Assembly: GCA_041658745.1 (NCBI GenBank)
Contig: JBAZZP010000003.1
Coordinates: 83,423 to 147,422 of the forward strand
DNA from: Candidatus Margulisiibacteriota bacterium
Lineage (GTDB): Bacteria; Margulisbacteria; WOR-1; O2-12-FULL-45-9
Direction of reading: 5' to 3'
Length of the DNA: 64,000 bases
The notes beneath the pieces are model-generated. The model worked only from the letters and a program-made list of their open reading frames with translations. It did no database searches and had not been told where the DNA came from. Shown here one piece after another: positions 934 through 54,254 of this stretch. Made by a program: the position numbers and the translations under genes. Position 1 is the stretch's first letter. Each line of letters begins with the position of its first letter.

Positions 934-2115
934 TCAGCTGAATAGATTTTTTAAAAGCTGGCTTCCTCGCACAATCTTCAACTTCGCCTTCCTCGCCTCT
1001 TTCTCATTATACCCCTGAATGCCTTTCCTTGCCATTCCTTGCCCTCCCTTGCCATCATAAATTACGAAAGGCACATCGTCCGCCGTATGTGTCATGTATT
1101 TGATCGGGGTTGGATGATCAGGAAGAACGAGTATCCGGGTATCCGGGGATCCGGGGATCAGGGAATGGTTTAATATATTCCCCACAACATATTTATCAAA
1201 ATCCTCAATCGCTTTAATTTTATGTTTAATATTGCCTTCATGACCGGCTTCGTCGGGCGCTTCAACGTGAACAAAGACAACATCGTGCTTTTTTAGTGCT
1301 CTCAGAGCAGCCTTTGCTTTCCCCACATAATTAGTATCTAAATAGCCGGTTGCTCCTGGGACTTTGATGACTTCAAGTCCAATAATTTTGCCAATTCCTT
1401 TTAGCAAGCCAACAGCAGTTATAATTGCTCCGCTTTTCCCAAATTGTTTTTTAAAAGTCGGCATCGTTGGCGCAGTTCCCTGCCCCCACAACCAAATCAT
1501 GTTAGCTTTTGACTTTAAATCATGCAGAATAACTTCGCCTTCGTTCATCAAGCGCAAAATAGCTTCAGACCCCTTCCCTTTCGGTAAATAATCGTGGATG
1601 CATTGGCCGGTGATGTCATGAGGTGGGGTAGTACCAACATTTGACATTTGACATTTGTCATTTGTCATTATCGTCATGATATGGCGATAGCTAACTCCAG
1701 TGTAAAAGCAAACATCTTTGCTTCCCAACTTCGCATTGAGTTGACGAATTATTTTGTCCGCTTCCTTGGTAGAAATGTGTCCAGCCGTGAAATCTTTCAT
1801 CTTGCCGTCTTTAACGGTCACCAGGTTGCAGCGGAAGGCTAATTCATTGTTCCGCAGTTTAATTCCCAGACTAGCAGCTTCGAGTGGTCCTCTACCCGAA
1901 TAATACTTTTTGGGATCGTAACCAAAAATGCTCATAGCAGCAACGTCAGATCCGGGCGGCATTTTGGGCGGAACGTTATTGGTCCAACCAACAAGGCCAT
2001 TGCGGGCCATAAAATCCAAGTTGGGGGTTTTGGCAACTTCAAGGGGAGTTTTCCCTCCCAAAGCTTTGAGTGGCAGATCGGACATTCCATCGCCGATGAG
2101 AACTAAATACTTCAT
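934..2115 (-). CDS. apgM: cofactor-independent phosphoglycerate mutase, archaeal type
   Basis: 393 aa. N-terminus MKYLVLIGDGMSDLP..GGKTPLEVAKTPNLDFMA, plus PPHD and VLPDHPTP..HTADDVPF motifs typical of ApgM. Confidence 0.85.
   Translation of the reverse strand: MKYLVLIGDGMSDLPLKALGGKTPLEVAKTPNLDFMARNGLVGWTNNVPPKMPPGSDVAAMSIFGYDPKKYYSGRGPLEAASLGIKLRNNELAFRCNLVTVKDGKMKDFTAGHISTKEADKIIRQLNAKLGSKDVCFYTGVSYRHIMTIMTNDKCQMSNVGTTPPHDITGQCIHDYLPKGKGSEAILRLMNEGEVILHDLKSKANMIWLWGQGTAPTMPTFKKQFGKSGAIITAVGLLKGIGKIIGLEVIKVPGATGYLDTNYVGKAKAALRALKKHDVVFVHVEAPDEAGHEGNIKHKIKAIEDFDKYVVGNILNHSLIPGSPDTRILVLPDHPTPIKYMTHTADDVPFVIYDGKGGQGMARKGIQGYNEKEARKAKLKIVRGSQLLKNLFS
1021..1056. repeat. decamer array GCCNTTCCTT (3.6 units) inside apgM
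   Basis: Reads gcctttcctt gccattcctt gccctccctt gccatc. It encodes ..DGKGGQGMARKG.. and belongs to the same family as 47901-47946. Confidence 0.8.
1133..1164. repeat. 4 x octamer array ATCCGGGN inside apgM
   Basis: Reads atccgggt atccgggg atccgggg atcaggga. On the coding strand it encodes ..SLIPGSPDTRIL.. Confidence 0.8.
1641..1677. repeat. heptamer array TTGNCAT x4 plus TATCGTCAT inside apgM
   Basis: Reads ttgacat ttgacat ttgtcat ttgtcat tatcgtcat. It encodes ..MTIMTNDKCQMSN.. Confidence 0.8.
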
Positions 2116-4219: not shown

Positions 4220-4289
4220 TTTCCTCCCGTAAAAGTAAATTATAGCTTATTTTTATTTGCGCTGCAACTATGCTATACTCGCCTTAAAG

Positions 4290-5141
4290 ATGCACAAAAT
4301 TACCGGATTATTGGGATTTCCGCTTGGACACACTCTTTCCCCCGCTATGCAAAACGCGGCCTTCAAAGAATTGGGCCTTGATTGGGAATATAAAAAGTTT
4401 GAAGTTGCGCCAGAAGATCTCAAGGCAGCTGTTGATGGATTCAAGGCCATGCATCTAGCCGGATTTAATGTTACCATCCCCCACAAAGAAAAAATTATTC
4501 CATTGCTAGATGACGTCACTAAGCTTGCCTCCTTGATTGGCGCGGTTAATACCGTAAAATATCAAAATGGCAGTTTAATTGGTTACAACACCGACGGAGA
4601 AGGATTTATCGCTTCCTTAAAGAACGATGCCAATGAAAGTCCGGCCGGAAAAAACATCGTAGTATTAGGGGCGGGAGGAGCTGGTCGCGCGGTTTGTGTG
4701 ATGCTAGCAGAAAACAAGGCCAGCAATTTAACAATATCGGATATTGACCAAACCAAATCCGCAGAATTAGCAAAACATATTCGATCAAATTTTAAAATAA
4801 CTTGCTCAAGCCTACTGCCCAACAGTCCAGCACTGCAAGCCGCCATTAATTCAGCTCATATTTTAGTCAACACAACTCCGATCGGCATGCTTCCTAAAAT
4901 TGATTTTTCTCCGATCGACGAAACCATTCTTCTTCCTTCACAATTATTAGTTTATGACTTAGTCTACAATCCGGCTGAAACCAAATTAATTAAACAAGCC
5001 AAAGCTGCCGGCTGTCGCACCTGCTCTGGTCTAGGCATGCTGGTCTATCAAGGAGCTTTTGCTTTTACCATCTGGACCGGTGAAGAGGCCCCGCTTGAAG
5101 TAATGCGAGCAGCGGCGAAAAAGGCGCTAGGCCTGTCGTAA
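4290..5141 (+). CDS. aroE: shikimate dehydrogenase
   Basis: Motifs GLLGFPLGHTLSPAMQNAAF, NVTIPHK, NTDGEGF and GAGGAGRAV. I prefer the ATG at 4290 over the track start at 4257, because a TATACT -10 lies at about 4273. Confidence 0.9.
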   Translation: MHKITGLLGFPLGHTLSPAMQNAAFKELGLDWEYKKFEVAPEDLKAAVDGFKAMHLAGFNVTIPHKEKIIPLLDDVTKLASLIGAVNTVKYQNGSLIGYNTDGEGFIASLKNDANESPAGKNIVVLGAGGAGRAVCVMLAENKASNLTISDIDQTKSAELAKHIRSNFKITCSSLLPNSPALQAAINSAHILVNTTPIGMLPKIDFSPIDETILLPSQLLVYDLVYNPAETKLIKQAKAAGCRTCSGLGMLVYQGAFAFTIWTGEEAPLEVMRAAAKKALGLS

Positions 5142-5207
5142 TTTCGACACCATTCCTCGTAATTTACCCGCAAATAGCTTGGCAATAACATTGCTGGGTT
5201 GCTAAGC

Positions 5208-6209
5208 ATGCATTCATATCGCGAAACGCCCGCTCTATTAGATGAGATTATTGCACAGGCAATTTCCCAAAATGCATCTGATATCCATTTAGAGCCGCAC
5301 GAGAATCATCTTAAAGTGCGTTATCGAGTGGACGGGCTTCTGCAAGAAGGAGCCTCTGTTCCCAAGATAAAACAAGCATCGCTTACTTCCCGCCTTAAAG
5401 TGATGGTTAACCTCGATATCGCCGAAAGCCGACAACCGCAAGACGGAAGAACCAATCTGCAAATTAACAAAACAGCCTTTGATGTTCGGGTATCCACCAT
5501 TCCAACGATACATGGCGAAAAAGTAGTTATGCGACTGCTCAACCGCCAGCATGCCGCCCTGAAAATTGACGAGTTAGGGATGGAAAAAGAGGATTTAATA
5601 AAATATGAGAGGATGTTAAAGAAAAGAAGCGGAATAATTTTGGTAACTGGCCCAACGGGATCAGGCAAAACGACCACCCTCTACGCCACACTGTCCTATC
5701 TAAATTCGAAAGAGATAAACATCACGACCATTGAAGATCCGGTAGAATACCAATTGACAGGAATCAACCAAATTCAAATTAATCCAAAGGCAGGATTAAC
5801 TTTTGCTCGCGGGTTGCGCTCTATTTTGCGCCAAGATCCTGACGTTATCATGGTTGGTGAAATTCGCGATTTGGAAACGGCCAAGATCGCCCTACAAGCA
5901 GCGCTAACTGGGCATTTAGTCTTTTCAACCCTGCATACCAATGATGCGACATCAACCATTTGTCGTCTAATCGACATAGGGATCGAAAAATATTTAATCG
6001 AGTCAACCATTGTTGGAGTAATTGCGCAAAGACTAGTGCGCAAGAGAACTAGTGAGGGATATAAGGGACGCATTGGAATCTACGAAGTAATGGAAGGCAT
6101 CCAATCAAACACTGACATGTCTTCTCTTGCACAGAACGGAGAATTAAAAGTAGCACAGGGAATAACCACTAAAGAAGAATTAGCTCGCGTGCTTTATCTC
6201 GAACATTAA
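5208..6209 (+). CDS. compact GspE/PilB-family type II/IV secretion ATPase (core only)
   Basis: Motifs SDIHLEP..LKVRYRVDGLL, Walker A GPTGSGKTT, Asp box and His box TGHLVFSTLHTND. It lacks the N-terminal domains and the C-terminal tetracysteine motif. Confidence 0.8.
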   Translation: MHSYRETPALLDEIIAQAISQNASDIHLEPHENHLKVRYRVDGLLQEGASVPKIKQASLTSRLKVMVNLDIAESRQPQDGRTNLQINKTAFDVRVSTIPTIHGEKVVMRLLNRQHAALKIDELGMEKEDLIKYERMLKKRSGIILVTGPTGSGKTTTLYATLSYLNSKEINITTIEDPVEYQLTGINQIQINPKAGLTFARGLRSILRQDPDVIMVGEIRDLETAKIALQAALTGHLVFSTLHTNDATSTICRLIDIGIEKYLIESTIVGVIAQRLVRKRTSEGYKGRIGIYEVMEGIQSNTDMSSLAQNGELKVAQGITTKEELARVLYLEH

Positions 6210-6553
6210 CCACCACCGCCACCACCACCGCCGCCTCCGCCACCGGCCCCACCTCCAGCCCCTGCTCCTCCACCAGCTCCAGCTCCACCACTAGAACCAA
6301 CTCCTGGTCCTCCTCCCATATGCGCAAGAAGCGAAATAGCCAAAGCTTTGACATGTTGAAACAGGTTTTTCATGACATTGGTTTCTTGCAAAATTTGAAC
6401 CCGTGGGCATCTTTCGCAGAATTTAAACTCGGCCTTTAGCGGATTACAGGCAGCTTCTGGATAATAAATGCACTTTTTAAACCCTTCTTTTCTACGCTTC
6501 ATTTCTTTAGGGCTAATCAGCTTATTTGCCTCATCAATCTTATTTATTTCCAT
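6206..6553 (-). CDS. small Cys4 protein with hydrophobic helix and C-terminal Gly/Ala tail ending in G12
   Basis: 115-aa ORF. Cys pattern is C-x7-C-x9-C-x2-C, followed by NVMKNLFQHVKALAISLLAHM and then GGGPGVGSSGGAGAGGGAGAGGGAGGGGGGGGGGGG. Mixed GGT/GGC/GGA codons are used. Confidence 0.5.
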   Translation of the reverse strand: MEINKIDEANKLISPKEMKRRKEGFKKCIYYPEAACNPLKAEFKFCERCPRVQILQETNVMKNLFQHVKALAISLLAHMGGGPGVGSSGGAGAGGGAGAGGGAGGGGGGGGGGGG

Positions 6554-35525: not shown

Positions 35526-37154
35526 ATGCAGCCAGAGCCAACCATTAAAATCCTCACCGAAGAACTAATCAACAAAATCGCTGCCGGAGAAGTGGTTGAG
35601 AGACCAGCCGCTGCGGTTAAAGAATTGGTTGAGAACTCGATTGACGCCGGCGCATCCAAAGTAAGCGTTGAAATTCAAGCAGCTGGCAGTAAACTAATCC
35701 GCGTTGCCGATAACGGCCGGGGAATGAGCCAAGAAGATTTAACTCTTGCGGTCCAACGCCATGCCACTTCCAAAATTAGCACCTTGGAAGACTTATTTAA
35801 CATTCAAACCCTGGGCTTTCGCGGAGAAGCGCTCTCCTCCATTGCCGCGGTTTCAAAATTTGATATCGAACAAAATCCTTCAGGACAAGGCGTTACCGTT
35901 ACGGCCAAAGACTTATTTTACAACACTCCCGCCCGCAAAAAGTTTTTAAAATCACCCTCGACCGAAATGGGACACATTGGCGACGTAGTTTCCAAATACG
36001 CCATGGCCTACCCAGAAATTGCCTTTGAATTAATTGTGGATGGAAAACCCCTCTTGCAATCCCCTGGATCAGGAAAACTAAAAGATGCCGTCTTGTCGGT
36101 TTACGGCTTAGAACTAGTTAAAGACTTGATTGCAATCGAAGGTAAAATTAACAACATTAAGGTCTCGGGCCTCATTAGTTTGCCCACTCTAACCCGGGTG
36201 GATAAAAATTATGAGAATTTTTTTGTCAACCGTCGTTTTGTAAAAAACTTCTTACTCAACCGGGCACTTGAAGACGCTTATCGTACTTTAATTCCCAATA
36301 ATCGTTATCCTGCAGCTATTGTCTTTATCGATGTCGATCCCAAACAAATCGATGTTAACGTCCACCCCACTAAACGCGAAATAAAGTTTGCCAATAATCA
36401 GGCCGTAATGGAAGCTGTTCGCACGGTTGTTCAGCAAGCCTTAGGCAACAAAACTCCCATACTCCATACTCCAAACTCCAATCTCCATACTCATTCCCAC
36501 TGGGATCCTCCGTGCCAGAAATGGGAACCAAGCATGGCTGACGTTCTCTTTCCGGTAGAGTGTGCGACTGGTGAAAATCTTCCTTTAAGGCCTGTTAGCA
36601 CTTACAAAGATACCTACATTATTACCACTGATGGAGAAGACCTGGTAATGATCGATCAGCACGCGGCTCACGAACGAGTGTTATACGACCGGCTCACAGC
36701 TCACAGCTCACAGCAAGCCCACGTTGAACAACAAACTTTGTTATTGCCCGAAAATATTGAGTTGGATACAAAAAGTTATTCAACAACCAAGGCAAATTTA
36801 GATTTACTGCGTGAGCTAGGCTTTGATTTGGAAGAGTTTGGCGGAAATGCCTTAATTTTACGCGCTGTTCCATCAATCTCGTCCAAGCTTAACCCTAAAC
36901 AACTCTTACTAGATATCGTGGCCGAATTAGACAATCTCGGCAAAAGCGTTCAAACCGAAACCAAACAAGAAAATATCCGCAAATTAATCGCTTGCCATAG
37001 TGCAGTCAAAGCAGGGGATAAATTATCCGCTCTCGAAATTAACCAACTGATCAAAGACCTTTATGCAACCCAAAACCCCATGACCTGCCCACACGGTCGA
37101 CCAATCATGTTTCGGATGACCGAAAACGAAATTAAAAAGAAATTTGCCCGCTAG
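35526..37154 (+). CDS. mutL: DNA mismatch repair protein MutL
   Basis: Motifs INKIAAGEVVERPAAAVKELVENSIDAG, DNGRGM, GFRGEAL, and C-terminal DQHAAHER and CPHGRP. Confidence 0.92.
   Translation: MQPEPTIKILTEELINKIAAGEVVERPAAAVKELVENSIDAGASKVSVEIQAAGSKLIRVADNGRGMSQEDLTLAVQRHATSKISTLEDLFNIQTLGFRGEALSSIAAVSKFDIEQNPSGQGVTVTAKDLFYNTPARKKFLKSPSTEMGHIGDVVSKYAMAYPEIAFELIVDGKPLLQSPGSGKLKDAVLSVYGLELVKDLIAIEGKINNIKVSGLISLPTLTRVDKNYENFFVNRRFVKNFLLNRALEDAYRTLIPNNRYPAAIVFIDVDPKQIDVNVHPTKREIKFANNQAVMEAVRTVVQQALGNKTPILHTPNSNLHTHSHWDPPCQKWEPSMADVLFPVECATGENLPLRPVSTYKDTYIITTDGEDLVMIDQHAAHERVLYDRLTAHSSQQAHVEQQTLLLPENIELDTKSYSTTKANLDLLRELGFDLEEFGGNALILRAVPSISSKLNPKQLLLDIVAELDNLGKSVQTETKQENIRKLIACHSAVKAGDKLSALEINQLIKDLYATQNPMTCPHGRPIMFRMTENEIKKKFAR
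36453..36500. repeat. degenerate heptamer array (ACTCCAN x6) in the mutL linker
   Basis: Reads actcccat actccat actccaa actccaa tctccat actcatt, encoding ..TPILHTPNSNLHTHSH.. Confidence 0.75.
36692..36712. repeat. perfect (GCTCACA)x3 tandem heptamer in the mutL C-terminal domain
   Basis: Reads gctcaca gctcaca gctcaca. The 21 nt stay in frame and encode LTAHSSQ. Confidence 0.9.
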
Positions 37155-37253
37155 TGTAGGGGATCTCGACACTGCTGCTGTCTAAAAATCGTCGTTTTTG
37201 TTTTACTTAGCCTTGACCAGAGCTGATTAGGCTTGGCAATACAATTGCTAGGG

Positions 37254-37448
37254 ATTGAATATCTGGTGATCAGGAAATCTGGGAAGGGAGATCGGGGAAT
37301 CAGGATATCTGGATAGGGAAATCAAGACAGTAGAAAATTATAGATTTGAATAATTATTATGAAAATACGGTCTTAAAGGTTTATTTCCCCCTAATTTCCA
37401 GATGCCCGGATTCCCCTTTCCTGATTCCCCGATCCCCAGATACCCAAT
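37254..37448. repeat. 195-bp imperfect inverted repeat built from ATCNGGRN octamer arrays (MITE-like or cruciform-prone element)
   Basis: The left arm 37254-37322 and the reverse complement of the right arm 37383-37448 both read attgRRt-atctggNg-atcNggRa-..-agggRR-..-gggaaat. A 60-nt AT-rich spacer separates them. Confidence 0.7.
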
Positions 37449-37455
37449 AGCATAT

Positions 37456-37485
37456 TTGACAGCTCAACCCATGCTCTGTTACCAT
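37456..37485 (+). promoter_or_regulatory. sigma-70-like promoter candidate for topA
   Basis: TTGACA (37456-37461), then 17-18 nt, then TTACCAT. This is about 25 nt upstream of the ATG at 37509. Confidence 0.35.
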
Positions 37486-37508
37486 CTTATCAGAAGCGCA
37501 AATAATTT

Positions 37509-39668
37509 ATGGCTAAGAAACAAACAAAATTAGTGATCGTTGAGTCTCCTTCTAAGGCCAACACCTTAAAGAAGTTCTTGGGGAGCGAATATACAGTAGA
37601 GGCCTCTGCCGGACATGTTATTGATCTTCCGCCAAAGTCGCTGGGAGTTAATGTTGAAAAAGACTTTACGCCAACCTACAAAACCATTAAAGGCAAAGAG
37701 AAAATCATCAAGCACTTGCAGGAAGCCGCCAAAAACGCCAGCGTAATTCTACTGGCTCCCGATCCGGATCGCGAAGGGGAAGCAATCGCATGGCACCTTT
37801 CAACAGCTCTGGGCAAAAACAAAAACATCAAACGAATAGAATTTCACGAAATCACCAAAGATGCCGTTCTATTTGCCGTTAAACATCCTAGAGAAATCGA
37901 TATGGATCGGGTCAATGCCCAGCAAGCCCGGCGAATACTGGATCGTTTGGTCGGTTACAAAATTAGCCCCCTCCTCTGGCGTAAAGTCCGCAAGGGTCTT
38001 TCGGCTGGCAGAGTCCAATCGGTGGCCGTCCGCTTAATTTGTGAACGCGAAGACCTAATCAATGCCTTTAAAGCTCAAGAATATTGGACTATTATTGCCA
38101 ATTTAGCAAACAATAGTAAAGTCGAGTTTTCTGCTCGTCTAATTTCCAAAGACGGGGAAGCCCTCGGTGGCCGCCCACAAGAAAAAACCAAAATTGTCGT
38201 TTCAGAGGCGGAAGCCAAACAAATTTTAAGTGAATTAGATGGGGCACAATATACTATTTCCCAAATTACCAAAAAAGAATCTCGCCGTTATCCCACCCCA
38301 CCCTTTATCACCAGTACGCTCCAGCAAGAAGCATCTCGCAAACTGGGCTTTTCAGCCAAAAGAACTATGATGCTGGCTCAGAAACTGTACGAAGGGATGG
38401 ATTTAAAAGACGAAGGCAGGCACGGCTTAATCACCTATATGCGTACCGACTCAGTCCGTATTGCCACCGAGGCCGAAACAGCCGTCCGCAAATATATTGT
38501 TGAAAATTTTGGCAAAGAATTTATTCCCGCTCAACCCCTTCACTACAAAAAAAAGAAACAGGCCCAAGATGCCCACGAAGCTATTCGCCCAACCTCTGTC
38601 CTGCGCTCTCCGGAGAAAATCAAAGAAAGCTTAGGGCCAGATGAATATAAACTATACGATTTGATTTGGAAAAGGTTTGTCGCCTGTCAGATGGAAGCCG
38701 CAATTTTTGATCAAACCGCCGCCGACATTGCGGCCAAAAACTATTTATTCCGCGCCAATGGATCAGTCATCAAATTTGAAGGATTTTTAAAAGTTTACAT
38801 GGAAAGCACCGATGAGGACACCCCACAAGAAACTGAAGGACTTTTACCCGAATTAAACGAAAAAGAATTACTAACATTATTAAAATTATTACCAGAACAA
38901 CATTTTACCGAACCGCCTGCCCGCTACAACGAAGCCTCCCTCGTCAAAGAACTGGAAAAAAGAGGGATTGGACGACCATCAACCTACGCCCCCATTATTG
39001 CTACTATCCAAGATCGCGGCTATGTTGAAAAAGAAGGGAAAGCTCTAAAGCCAACCGAAATTGGAGTAACAACCAACACCTTATTGGTGAAACATTTTCC
39101 ACAAATCCTGGACATCAAATTTACCGCCCAAATGGAAGATGAACTGGATGACGTGGCAGAAGCAAAAATTAACTGGGTTAAGGCCTTAAAAGACTTCTAT
39201 GAGCCATTTGCCGCTGCCCTTTCACTAGCTGAAGTAAAAATGGAGAAGGTAAAAAAAGAAATTGCCACTGACGAGGTTTGCCCTACCTGTGGCAAACCCC
39301 TTATTATCCGTGAAGGGCGCTATGGCAATTTTATTGCTTGCTCCGGCTACCCTAAATGCAAATATACAAAGCCCACCAAAGAGGACGAAGTAAAAGTAAC
39401 TGAGGTCTGTGAAAAATGCGGGAAACCGATGGTCATGAAGCATAGTCGTTTTGGCAGTTTTCTAGCTTGCTCTGGATATCCAAACTGCAAAAACACCAAA
39501 AATATCATAAAAAAGATAGACGCCAAATGTCCCAAGTGCGGTGGAGATATATCCGAAAGAAGGACTCGGCGCGGCAAGATCTTTTATGGCTGCAGCAACT
39601 GGCCCAAATGCGACTTTGCCACTTGGCAGCGGCCAGCTCCAGAAAAGAAAGAAGGGGAAAATGCTTAA
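37509..39668 (+). CDS. topA: DNA topoisomerase I
   Basis: Toprim N-terminus KLVIVESPSKA, active-site region YMRTDS, and three C-terminal C4 zinc ribbons (CPTCGKPL.., CEKCGKPM.., CPKCGG..). Confidence 0.93.
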   Translation: MAKKQTKLVIVESPSKANTLKKFLGSEYTVEASAGHVIDLPPKSLGVNVEKDFTPTYKTIKGKEKIIKHLQEAAKNASVILLAPDPDREGEAIAWHLSTALGKNKNIKRIEFHEITKDAVLFAVKHPREIDMDRVNAQQARRILDRLVGYKISPLLWRKVRKGLSAGRVQSVAVRLICEREDLINAFKAQEYWTIIANLANNSKVEFSARLISKDGEALGGRPQEKTKIVVSEAEAKQILSELDGAQYTISQITKKESRRYPTPPFITSTLQQEASRKLGFSAKRTMMLAQKLYEGMDLKDEGRHGLITYMRTDSVRIATEAETAVRKYIVENFGKEFIPAQPLHYKKKKQAQDAHEAIRPTSVLRSPEKIKESLGPDEYKLYDLIWKRFVACQMEAAIFDQTAADIAAKNYLFRANGSVIKFEGFLKVYMESTDEDTPQETEGLLPELNEKELLTLLKLLPEQHFTEPPARYNEASLVKELEKRGIGRPSTYAPIIATIQDRGYVEKEGKALKPTEIGVTTNTLLVKHFPQILDIKFTAQMEDELDDVAEAKINWVKALKDFYEPFAAALSLAEVKMEKVKKEIATDEVCPTCGKPLIIREGRYGNFIACSGYPKCKYTKPTKEDEVKVTEVCEKCGKPMVMKHSRFGSFLACSGYPNCKNTKNIIKKIDAKCPKCGGDISERRTRRGKIFYGCSNWPKCDFATWQRPAPEKKEGENA

Positions 39669-52427: not shown

Positions 52428-54254
52428 GTGCCTCTCGAAACCACCCATTATCCTAAAGAATATGATGTAATCGTCATTGGCGCTGGGCATGCAGGAATTG
52501 AAGCTGCCTTGGCGGCAGCTCGCATGGGTTGTCAGACCTTACTCTTAACTATCAACCTTGATACGATTGCTTTTATGGCCTGTAATCCCGCCGTGGGGGG
52601 GCCGGCAAAAAGCCAATTAGTACGCGAAGTTGACGCTTTAGGCGGACAAATGGGAGTATCGACCGATTTAACTTTCTTGCAGATGAAAATGCTCAACACC
52701 ACCAAAGGCCCAGCGGTTCAAGCTTTGAGAGCCCAGTCTGACCGCAATTCCTATCACGTCACTATGAAACAGGTCCTCGAAGAACAAACCAATCTTGATC
52801 TAAAACAAGGGATTGTCGAAGAACTTCTTTCCGACTCACGCCCCCATACGCCCACCGATTCACCCGACGCAACCACCACCGCTAGACGCATTACGGGAGT
52901 CCGCACAAATCTCAACATGGTTTACTCAAGCAAAACCGTTGTGGTAACAACAGGAACGTTCCTCAATGGCATCGTTCACGTTGGAATGACCCACATGGAA
53001 GCCGGCCGAGCAGGAGAATTGCCCGCTAAAGGTATGTCTGAAAGTTTGGTAGCACTGGGATTAGAACTTGGAAGATTAAAAACCGGGACTCCAGCCCGAT
53101 TAAATAAACGCTCGATCGATTTTTCTAAAATGATCCCGCAGCCTGGCGACGAACCACCAAAAATGTTTTCATTTGTCTGGGAATATCAACAATACGGGTT
53201 ATCGGGGAATCCGATGATCGGGGGATCTGGGACAAATCAAATTCCTTGTCATTTAACCTGGACTACTCCTCAAACTCACGCAATTATCCGAGCAAATCTT
53301 GATCGTTCACCGTTATTTCAGGGGAAAATTAAAGGAACGGGGCCTCGCTATTGTCCGTCGATTGAAGATAAAGTTGTTCGCTTCCCTGAAAAAGATCGAC
53401 ATCAATGTTTCATTGAACCGTGCGGGAGAGACACGCTGGAAATGTACGCCCAAGGCATGAGCACCAGCCTTCCCGCCGATGTACAACTAGAAATGCTAAG
53501 AACTATGCCAGGGCTTGAAAATGTAGAAATGCTGCGGCCGGGATACGCCGTTGAGTATGATTACGTCAAGCCCTCTCAACTCTTGCCCACCTTAGAAACC
53601 AAACAGATTACTGGGTTGTTTTGTGCTGGACAAATTAACGGGACTTCGGGCTACGAAGAAGCGGCCGCGCAAGGAATTGTAGCGGGGATAAACGCCGCAC
53701 TTAAAGTTAAAGAGAAAGAGCCGCTCGTGCTGGGGAGAGAAAACTCATATATTGGAACTTTAATTGACGACCTAATCACCAAAGATATTGACGAGCCTTA
53801 TCGCATGTTAACTTCACGCTCCGAATATCGCTTGCTTCTGCGACAAGATAATGCCGACCTGCGGTTGACAGAAAAAGGTTATCAGGTTGGTTTAATTTCT
53901 AAAGAACGTTTTTCTAGTTTTCAGAAAAAGAAAGCGGCAGTTGAATCTGAAACAGTTATTTCCCCGGAAACAGAAGAACAAATCGCCATAACCAAAAAAT
54001 ATGCAGGCTATATAATGCGCCAATTGCAACAAATCGAGCGTTTTAAAAAACTGGAACACAAAAAATTGCCCTCGGATTTTGATTACTCGGAACTACGAGG
54101 ATTATCTAATGAGGCTCGAATTAAACTGGCCAAAATTCAACCCCTTTCCATCGGACAAGCCACCAGAATTGCGGGAGTTTCTCCAGCCGACATTTCTGTT
54201 TTGCTAATTCACCTTGAAACCCGTGGACGCTCAAAAGAATCTATGCTAAAATAA
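52428..54254 (+). CDS. mnmG: tRNA uridine 5-carboxymethylaminomethyl modification enzyme MnmG/GidA
   Basis: Motifs [35 protein letters not shown] and [16 protein letters not shown]. The start codon is non-ATG (GTG). Confidence 0.92.
53201..53232. repeat. 4 x octamer array ATCNGRNN inside mnmG
   Basis: Reads atcgggga atccgatg atcggggg atctggga. It encodes ..[12 protein letters not shown].. and belongs to the same family as 1133-1164 and the arms of 37254-37448. Confidence 0.75.

Follow-up and report, generated by a model that had tools for sequence, protein, structure and literature searches.

A hairpin built of degenerate octamer arrays between mutL and topA in a Margulisbacteria genome, probable member of a dispersed short-repeat family

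The spacer between mutL and topA in a 64-kb stretch of DNA from a Candidatus Margulisiibacteriota bacterium (this whole stretch is called the window below) carries a 195-bp inverted repeat (positions 37254-37448), whose two arms of degenerate ATCNGGNN octamers surround a 60-nt AT-rich loop. Comparison with relatives shows that this octamer element is an insertion between two conserved topA promoter motifs, found in the lineage of the window only. It is probably an inverted doublet belonging to a dispersed family of short repeats, i.e., a hairpin devoid of open reading frame (ORF), probably transcribed as a leader, that recalls the short tandemly repeated repetitive (STRR) elements, the REPINs (hairpin-forming doublets of repetitive extragenic palindromic, REP, sequences) and the intervening sequences (IVS) of rRNA genes. 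The ATCNGGNN-octamer hairpin repeat is apparently widespread and undescribed, and no match was found in the papers searched, either for the array strings or for octamer-repeat terms.

An insertion between two conserved motifs

The element had been placed between mutL and topA by a first-pass annotation made from the window alone, and NCBIfam models identified the flanking proteins as MutL and TopA. Both are 100% identical to proteins encoded on a 221,995-bp contig of a Candidatus Margulisiibacteriota metagenome-assembled genome. The topA neighbourhoods of relatives (L150, L151, L152, L313, L314, L315 and L134) were reached via homologues, the identity of their TopA to that of the window being, for example, 81% for L150 and 71% for L134. 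The downstream order topA, panC and prepilin-like genes is conserved among these relatives and the upstream side of topA is variable: mutL lies directly upstream in L152 and L315, and its place is taken by an ORF6N gene in L150 and L134, a gene encoding a PF05635 "23S rRNA IVS protein" in L313, a minus-strand ORF in L314 and an amino-acid kinase gene in L151.

Two blocks are nevertheless kept in front of topA. A sigma-70-like block (GCATATTTGACAG-N14-TCTGTTACCAT) is present in L150, L151, L152, L313, L314 and L315; its conservation in these six relatives bears out the candidate topA promoter that had been proposed downstream of the element. Just upstream of it, a GGCT(T)GGCAAT-N3-ATTGCT block, which contains a sigma-54-like box, is kept in L152, L313, L314, L315 and the window. 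Only 4-6 nt separate the box from the sigma-70-like block in L315, L152 and L314, which read ATTGCT-(4-6 nt)-TTTGACAG, whereas about 199 nt more lie between them in the window, which reads ATTGCT-(AGGGATTGAAT...ACCCAAT)-AGCATATTTGACAG. No ATCNGG array was found in the topA loci of the relatives (about 94 kb in total), and the octamer element is missing from all six relatives that keep the promoter. Since box and promoter are adjacent in relatives without the element, it is an insertion specific to the lineage of the window. The topA promoter does not depend on the element. Alignment with empty sites revealed at most an ambiguous "AG" or "A" as target-site duplication (TSD), which is indistinguishable from chance.

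Table 1. Coordinates of the octamer element, its surroundings and the octamer arrays located inside genes of the window
Feature	Position	Strand	Description
mutL, upstream flank	35526..37154	+	NCBIfam TIGR00585, E = 6.7e-150
Sigma-54-like -24/-12 box	37234..37249	+	TGGCAATACAATTGCT, fits TGGCA-N6-TTGCW; left edge of the insertion
Inserted segment	37250..37449		about 199 nt, missing from "empty-site" relatives (alignment)
Left G-rich arm	37254..37322	+	ATTGAAT, three ATCNGGNN units, AGGGAG, three further units, AGGGAAAT
Loop	37323..37382		60 nt, AT-rich; inner stem AAGAC/GTCTT
Right arm	37383..37448	-	C-rich on + strand; left-arm module order when read on - strand
Sigma-70-like topA promoter (candidate)	37456..37485	+	TTGACA-18-TACCAT, upstream TG; 10/12 match
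topA, downstream flank	37509..39668	+	NCBIfam TIGR01051, E = 8.8e-262
apgM octamer array	1103..1164	+	inside ORF; apgM on - strand, its mRNA carries the C-rich strand
mnmG octamer array	53201..53232	+	inside ORF, sense orientation

Other repeats were observed in the window. A small GTGTCG-loop-CGACAC hairpin that follows the mutL stop codon is conserved in several relatives (L315 2866-2884, L313 2196-2215), and the window carries a diverged form of it (CGACAC...GTC) at 37155-37200. Heptamer tandem repeats resembling STRR sequences (CCATACT x5, GCTCACA x3.3 and ACATTTG x4.7) are found in coding DNA of the window, inside mutL (36451-36492 and 36692-36714) and inside apgM (1637-1669).

Arms, loop and folding

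The unit order and the parsing of both arms given by the first-pass annotation were recovered from the sequence and with a repeat finder, which delimited arms of 55 nt each (37254-37308 and 37394-37448) that are 76% complementary, with 60-85 nt between arms. No other inverted repeat in the window reaches 24 nt with its arms no more than 150 nt apart. The ATCNGGRRATCNGG two-unit pattern (at most one mismatch) occurs 14 times in the window, compared to 0.94 expected, and no shuffle reached 14. The region 37245-37455 folds far better than shuffled controls, both as RNA (-75.4 kcal/mol vs -55.6 +/- 4.9, z = -4.08, with none of 200 shuffles equalling it) and as DNA (-36.4 vs -22.9 +/- 3.7, z = -3.67).

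The estimate of about three-quarters identity between the arms, like their 76% complementarity, stems almost entirely from the invariant ATC and GG of each unit. At positions 4, 7 and 8, which vary from unit to unit, the two arms match at six of 15 sites in straight register and at a proportion of 0.58 at the best shift, and the arms of doublets of the Margulisbacteria type match at 0.40-0.58, compared to 0.45 for a null made of arms from different elements. These positions gave no evidence of compensatory evolution between arms.

The loop holds promoter-like hexamers, which are consensus matches only, on the minus strand (37365->37337, TTTTCA-17-TATAAT, 10/12) and on the plus strand (37331-37360, 9/12). 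Loops of other members of the octamer family are unrelated to that of the window. The loops of the window, L314 and L152 align via AT-rich stretches only (about 68% over 28 nt for the window and L314), an alignment not treated as significant. Rfam models gave no match in the window at gathering thresholds, and no rRNA was found in it; at permissive E-values, only sub-threshold plant miRNA precursor models matched the element locus, because the element is a long hairpin. Over 13 related loci, Rfam detected tRNAs only.

The first-pass annotation had raised the idea of a supercoiling-sensitive structure in front of topA, i.e., a cruciform controlling the topA promoter. The inverted repeat does lie close to the -35 element (7 nt from TTGACA at 37456, and not 8 nt as first counted), its AT-rich centre could melt under negative supercoiling and its DNA-level fold is better than that of shuffles. 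However, the six relatives carry the same promoter without the element, members of the family lie beside unrelated genes and inside ORFs, and the arms contain a mismatch every few bp in addition to being far apart. Imperfect arms and a long centre make extrusion costly. A role as supercoil-responsive cruciform is therefore very improbable.

Selection for an RNA hairpin at this site, which could act as an insulator, a stabiliser of the 3' end of the mutL mRNA, an RNase III site or a 5' leader tuning the box-driven topA transcripts, is another reading. Other lineages have long hairpins in the same mutL-topA spacer, namely an unrelated GC-rich one in L152 (9806-9925; -71.7 kcal/mol, z = -7.65) and, in L314 (2790-2925), a hairpin of (GGTTCTN)n heptamer arrays whose AT-rich loop is about 65 nt long; in L313 (2196-2870), a PF05635 gene lies in this spacer between inverted TTGGACN heptamer arrays. 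Furthermore, array hairpins of phages occupy gaps between co-directional structural genes, and an increase in transcript stability has been put forward as a role of STRR hairpins (PMC2670836). The hairpins of L152 and L314 fit either hairpin selection or an insertion hot spot. However, no such hairpin is found upstream of topA in L315 and L150, which favours the hot spot, and unrelated genes (ORF6N, PF05635, amino-acid kinase) have also been inserted in this spacer. In addition, pairing is not compensated at the variable positions, folding is better for the antisense than for the sense strand and there is no U-tract. Taken together, a hairpin selected as RNA at this site appears unlikely.

A dispersed family of octamer modules

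The unit of the family, ATCNGGNN, is a degenerate octamer with an invariant ATC and GG, its positions 4, 7 and 8 being free. Units that lie outside the search pattern also keep ATC and GG while varying at these three positions, so the evidence for the core is not circular. Units are assembled in modules of about 55-65 nt that comprise three octamers, then the hexamer NNGGRR and then a further two to four octamers, an order first seen inside a gene of the Saganbacteria contig L011. The module search of JGI metagenomes with ATCNGGNNATCNGGRRATCNGGRRNNGGRRATCNGG (about 50 bits) revealed 28 loci, 22 of which are true modules and six are simple GGGAATC arrays in GC-rich contigs. The same module thus exists in 22 other metagenome loci, in agreement with the earlier assignment of the element to a repeat family. 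Among the matches listed, the hosts identified are Margulisbacteria or Saganbacteria: L010, L011, L134 (by synteny) and L145, whose penicillin-binding protein PBP1A is 96% identical to a Saganbacteria protein.

The modules occur in three settings: (i) single intergenic modules, whose G-rich strand mostly has the same sense as the following gene, (ii) modules inside ORFs, at variable loops (apgM and mnmG in the window, the linker of mutL in L134, a MiaB-like gene in L011 and the linker of a ComEA-like gene in L010) and (iii) inverted pairs (the window, L128, which is the same locus as L131, L129, L137, L138 and L145). Every pair examined is intergenic, and many lie between co-directional genes. 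The octamer arrays that had been noticed inside apgM and mnmG are real and do lie within the ORFs (Table 1). The array of apgM accounts for an insertion of three residues in a loop when compared to PDB 2zkt, and the loop encoded by that of mnmG is 12 residues longer than in MnmG of Escherichia coli and six residues longer than in Aquifex MnmG. By contrast, the proposal that the mutL-topA element is the "master" form of these two arrays is not supported: only ATC and GG are common to all arrays, and the arms of the window element are, at variable positions, no more alike than random members of the family.

Several other features of the window were recorded. Another insertion in MnmG (gene at 52428-54254), around residues 135-150 and separate from the array loop, adds about 15 residues that the Aquifex and E. 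coli structures lack. A minus-strand gene (142-921) encodes a predicted protein with a long N-terminal low-complexity region rich in Thr and Ser, and a CCACCA-type tandem repeat rich in proline codons is found at 6209-6291, at the end of the pilT-like gene region.

Some functions were considered for the octamers and rejected: (i) a CsrA-type GGA sponge, many units being devoid of GGA and the motifs being base-paired in doublets, (ii) tandem Shine-Dalgarno or anti-Shine-Dalgarno mimicry, the units of Margulisbacteria being too variable, (iii) G-quadruplexes, most units having GG only, (iv) adenine mutagenesis in the manner of diversity-generating retroelements (DGRs), the first A of every unit being invariant, and (v) a Chi-like or uptake-sequence role, for which no supporting evidence was found. 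The GGGTGATC units (Acidobacteria/phage type) are complementary to the 3' end of 16S rRNA.

A fixed register after a sigma-54-like box

The insertion is bounded on its left by a box (Table 1) whose pattern, TGGCA-N6-TTGCW, has three matches in the window compared to 0.44 expected. The sigma-54 consensus is mrNrYTGGCACG-4bp-TTGCWNNw (PMC2725144), and TTGGCAATACAATTGCT shows the 10-nt spacing of GG and GC within YTGGCACG-N4-TTGCW. The box is found at the same place upstream of topA in L315, L152, L314 and L313. The element begins immediately after the TTGCT of the box and its first ATC follows after another 11 nt, close to the transcription start expected of a -24/-12 promoter.

The order box, exactly 11 nt, module recurs independently at four loci, namely the window, L123, L145 and L149, and a degenerate version is present in L137. 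The gene that follows differs each time: topA in the window, an ORF6N-like gene in L123, a PF05635 gene in L145 and a DUF1016/YhcG gene in L149. For an 18-bit motif, such a recurrence cannot be due to chance. The left arm, box included, aligns in register with L123, L145, L149 and L137. Furthermore, box and module of L137 and L149 agree even at variable positions, which shows that copying of whole modules also takes place.

Two further boxes (TGGCAAT-N3-ATTGCT) are located in the window. One (5180-5195) precedes by 12 nt the start codon, ATG, of a gene for a T2SSE/PilT-like ATPase (5199-6209), which suggests a leaderless transcript; the other (39323-39338) is located within topA, in its 3' part, and upstream of panC and of the prepilin-like genes. 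Synteny breakpoints coincide with boxes, which may be recombination or cassette junctions (window 4257-6209 vs L150 8469-12160): the window has shikimate dehydrogenase, box and pilT-like genes in one place and mutL, box, element and topA in another, whereas its relative Yes70-34 (L150) has shikimate dehydrogenase, box, ORF6N and topA.

PF05635 genes and cassette behaviour

Large rRNA intervening sequences encode the uncharacterised protein family PF05635, a homologue of Avd of DGRs (PMC10053308). In L117 (Planctomycetota), L008 (Terriglobales) and L145, a gene of this family has a G-array on one side and a C-array on the other. The two Saganbacteria contigs L145 and L316 are collinear, with 85-90% nucleotide identity, except at one locus beside the PBP1A gene. 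There, L145 (8283-9000) carries the box, an octamer array, the PF05635 gene and an octamer inverted pair, whereas L316 (4235-5000) carries a DUF433-DUF5615 (PIN-like) pair. This difference is a cassette polymorphism. Together with the nesting of PF05635 genes, it supports the view of the window element as an ORF-less miniature of array-armed hairpin cassettes. All-vs-all clustering of 4,040 ORFs located near arrays identified no transposase-like family common to different taxa, and retrieved only phage synteny groups and common housekeeping families.

These data invite a wider scenario, which we regard as speculative and rather doubtful. Array-armed hairpins would be IVS-like mobile cassettes shared across phyla, with a full form in which a PF05635 gene separates a G-rich from a C-rich octamer array, and with ORF-less miniatures, among them the window element, that would survive as hairpins; they would integrate just 3' of the -12 element of sigma-54-type promoters, and their hairpins would become 5' leaders, here that of topA. 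If this mobile-cassette scenario is true, it would give PF05635 proteins their first role outside DGRs and would define a new promoter-targeting element.

The arrays could also be binding sites for a DNA- or RNA-binding factor reading ATC-N-GG every 8 nt, the hairpin being secondary, and an Avd-like PF05635 four-helix-bundle protein is one candidate for such a factor. The conservation of ATC and GG while the variable positions relevant to pairing drift, the fixed polarity, the conservation of the core across phyla, the nesting of PF05635 genes between arrays in three phyla and the homology of PF05635 to Avd, a DGR accessory protein associated with nucleic acids (PMC10053308), are all compatible with this hypothesis. 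However, PF05635 is absent from the 34 window proteins that were scanned, most arrays have no neighbouring PF05635 gene and the 8-nt period does not match the helical repeat. We consider such a binding-site array quite improbable.

Breadth, polarity and controls

Arrays with the fixed core extend far beyond the phylum of the window. Among the matches listed, they were found in Acidobacteriota, Planctomycetota, Verrucomicrobiota, Bacteroidota, Omnitrophota, Chloroflexota and Actinomycetes, with modules containing the hexamer in Phycisphaerae, Pirellulales and Omnitrophota. Bona fide phage contigs carry ATCGGGTG-armed hairpins in gaps between the genes of portal, connector and other late proteins. 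When arrays on opposite strands are no more than 250 nt apart, the G-arm comes first in at least 35 pairs and the C-arm in none among the matches listed, some of the 35 being orthologous copies.

Three control octamer patterns searched in viral contigs gave 36, 26 and 42 loci (104 in total), compared to 57 for the octamer repeat, with zero inverted pairs. Raw counts of four-unit arrays being similar in controls, plain counts in viral contigs are not special. By contrast, since controls are devoid of inverted pairs and polarity is one-way, inverted pairing and polarity are specific to the octamer repeat. These results also bear on the explanation that the element is a chance microsatellite palindrome produced by local slippage or template switching, with no tie to a family. 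The frequency of control arrays in viral contigs agrees with it, as does the separate homogenisation of arms to different units in L094 (TC units on one arm, AG units on the opposite one), L169 and L028, which indicates that slippage acts within arms. However, independent loci repeat the "3 + hexamer + 3" architecture and its fixed register after the box, the polarity is 35 to 0 among the matches listed while controls lack inverted pairs, and the units are heterogeneous, whereas fresh slippage products would be identical. We therefore disfavour this explanation and judge it highly improbable.

Some arrays outside Margulisbacteria have noteworthy layouts. Related IMG/VR phage contigs with portal and head-tail connector genes (L192, L202, L206, L207, L196 and L203) carry, between co-directional structural genes, inverted arms of four ATCGGGTG units around variable centres of 40-130 nt in the L192 group, and at one orthologous site the arms are conserved and the centre is different (L192 vs L206). 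A metagenome-assembled genome of a proteobacterium (L004 5808-5878) has a clean hairpin, (AAATCGGG)3, loop and (CCCGATTT)4. In Sediminibacterium (L077 1803-1972 and 2426-2515), inverted pairs of the ATCGGGTG type lie between co-directional genes, one of them DUF5675, and adjoin other REP-like palindromes.

Proposed origin and role of the element

The explanation that we retain as probable, an inverted doublet of a dispersed family, can be formulated as follows. The element would be an ORF-less miniature of array-armed hairpin cassettes and would have been spread by a mechanism favouring the position just 3' of the box. A transcript initiated from the box would have its start near 37261, with the entire hairpin as 5' leader, and a transcript reading through from mutL would likewise contain it. 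The long and imperfect stem of this leader RNA may stabilise the transcript, be processed or act as an insulator. Owing to the intact sigma-70-like promoter located downstream, basal topA expression would not depend on the element, whose influence on topA is thus probably incidental and not that of a supercoil-sensing device.

Several observations weigh against this explanation. The search for further copies of the element returned a single full one in the 64-kb window, and the family counts are lower bounds that depend on the search patterns chosen. Neither transposase nor REP-associated tyrosine transposase (RAYT) was detected among the 34 scanned proteins, which also include neither rpoN product nor enhancer-binding protein; the box is sigma-54-like, and its putative dependence on this factor is deduced from its pattern only. 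As regards RNA, the minus strand of the element folds better than the gene-sense strand (-80.2 vs -70.9), which gives no sign of selection on the sense-strand RNA, and folding of both strands over 18 inverted pairs had a mixed outcome. There is no terminator-like U-tract, and no terminator-like site in 36900-37700; the element thus does not have the form of an intrinsic terminator (GC-rich stem plus U-tract). Lastly, at the variable positions, the two arms of an element resemble each other no more than arms from unrelated elements do, which argues against a recent inverted duplication and leaves either in-situ turnover of the arrays or selection of the ATC/GG pattern by a binding factor.

For the biology of topA, the outcome is deflating, as the element is an insertion restricted to one lineage and not a conserved supercoil sensor. 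The interest lies at the level of the family: an ATC-N-GG core found in distant phyla and phages, an invariant polarity, a fixed register after the box and the nesting of PF05635 genes. If the family is mobile or bound by a protein, the STRR/REPIN class of miniature repeats would extend to Margulisbacteria and beyond, and the arrays would provide a lead on the role of 23S-rRNA-IVS/Avd-like proteins.

Comparison with known repeat systems

The host phylum is usually placed as sister to Cyanobacteria, and the STRR hairpins of Cyanobacteria are among the closest parallels of the element. To our knowledge, neither a fixed G-arm-first polarity nor an association with a box has been reported for STRR sequences. 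Like those found upstream of hupS-hupL and hoxW, the element is made of short tandem units that form an intergenic hairpin, and the relatives L314 and L313 carry heptamer versions in the same spacer. Cyanobacterial STRR sequences are 7-bp repeats that form hairpins of unknown function, with a possible effect on transcript stability or translational coupling (PMC2670836). Unlike these heptamers, the unit of the element is a degenerate octamer with fixed ATC and GG, with a period of 8 plus one 6-nt step, and its family has a "3 + hexamer + 3" module and also occurs in ORFs, in other phyla and in phages.

The element shares with REPs, bacterial interspersed mosaic elements (BIMEs) and REPINs the combination of two inverted repeat units and a spacer in a hairpin of about 100-200 nt, the coexistence of singlets and doublets, and an intergenic location, often inside operons (PMC3116915). 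However, its arms are purine-rich tandem arrays without internal palindrome or GTAG-like head and are not near-identical, no RAYT is encoded among the scanned window proteins, and the REP family is strictly extragenic whereas octamer modules also occur inside apgM, mnmG, mutL of L134 and other ORFs.

With the PF05635-encoding IVS of 23S rRNA genes, several family members (L117, L008, L145 and L313) have in common a stem of terminal inverted repeats, made of octamer or heptamer arrays, around a short loop or a PF05635 ORF. Whereas IVS are found in a 23S rRNA helix, from which RNase III excises them, the element lies between mutL and topA, and the window copy has only a 60-nt loop and no ORF. 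We know of no report of classical IVS stems built of ATCNGGNN arrays.

The first-pass annotation had called the structure similar to miniature inverted-repeat transposable elements (MITEs). This holds, also with respect to the MITEs of Correia/NEMIS type that lie next to promoters, for its small size, the lack of coding sequence, the terminal inverted repeats and the insertion, relative to related genomes, beside or between promoter elements. A TSD is at most ambiguous; there is no second or near-identical copy in the window and no cognate transposase among the 34 proteins, and the "terminal repeats" make up nearly the whole element and are internally repetitive. It also departs from regulatory repeats of the cruciform type, which are near-perfect with a short spacer. 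The element thus fails at least one defining feature of each of these systems, STRR, REPIN, rRNA IVS and MITE. Overall, we rate it as a kind of short-tandem-repeat hairpin element, of modest interest as a single instance but with family-level features that deserve follow-up.

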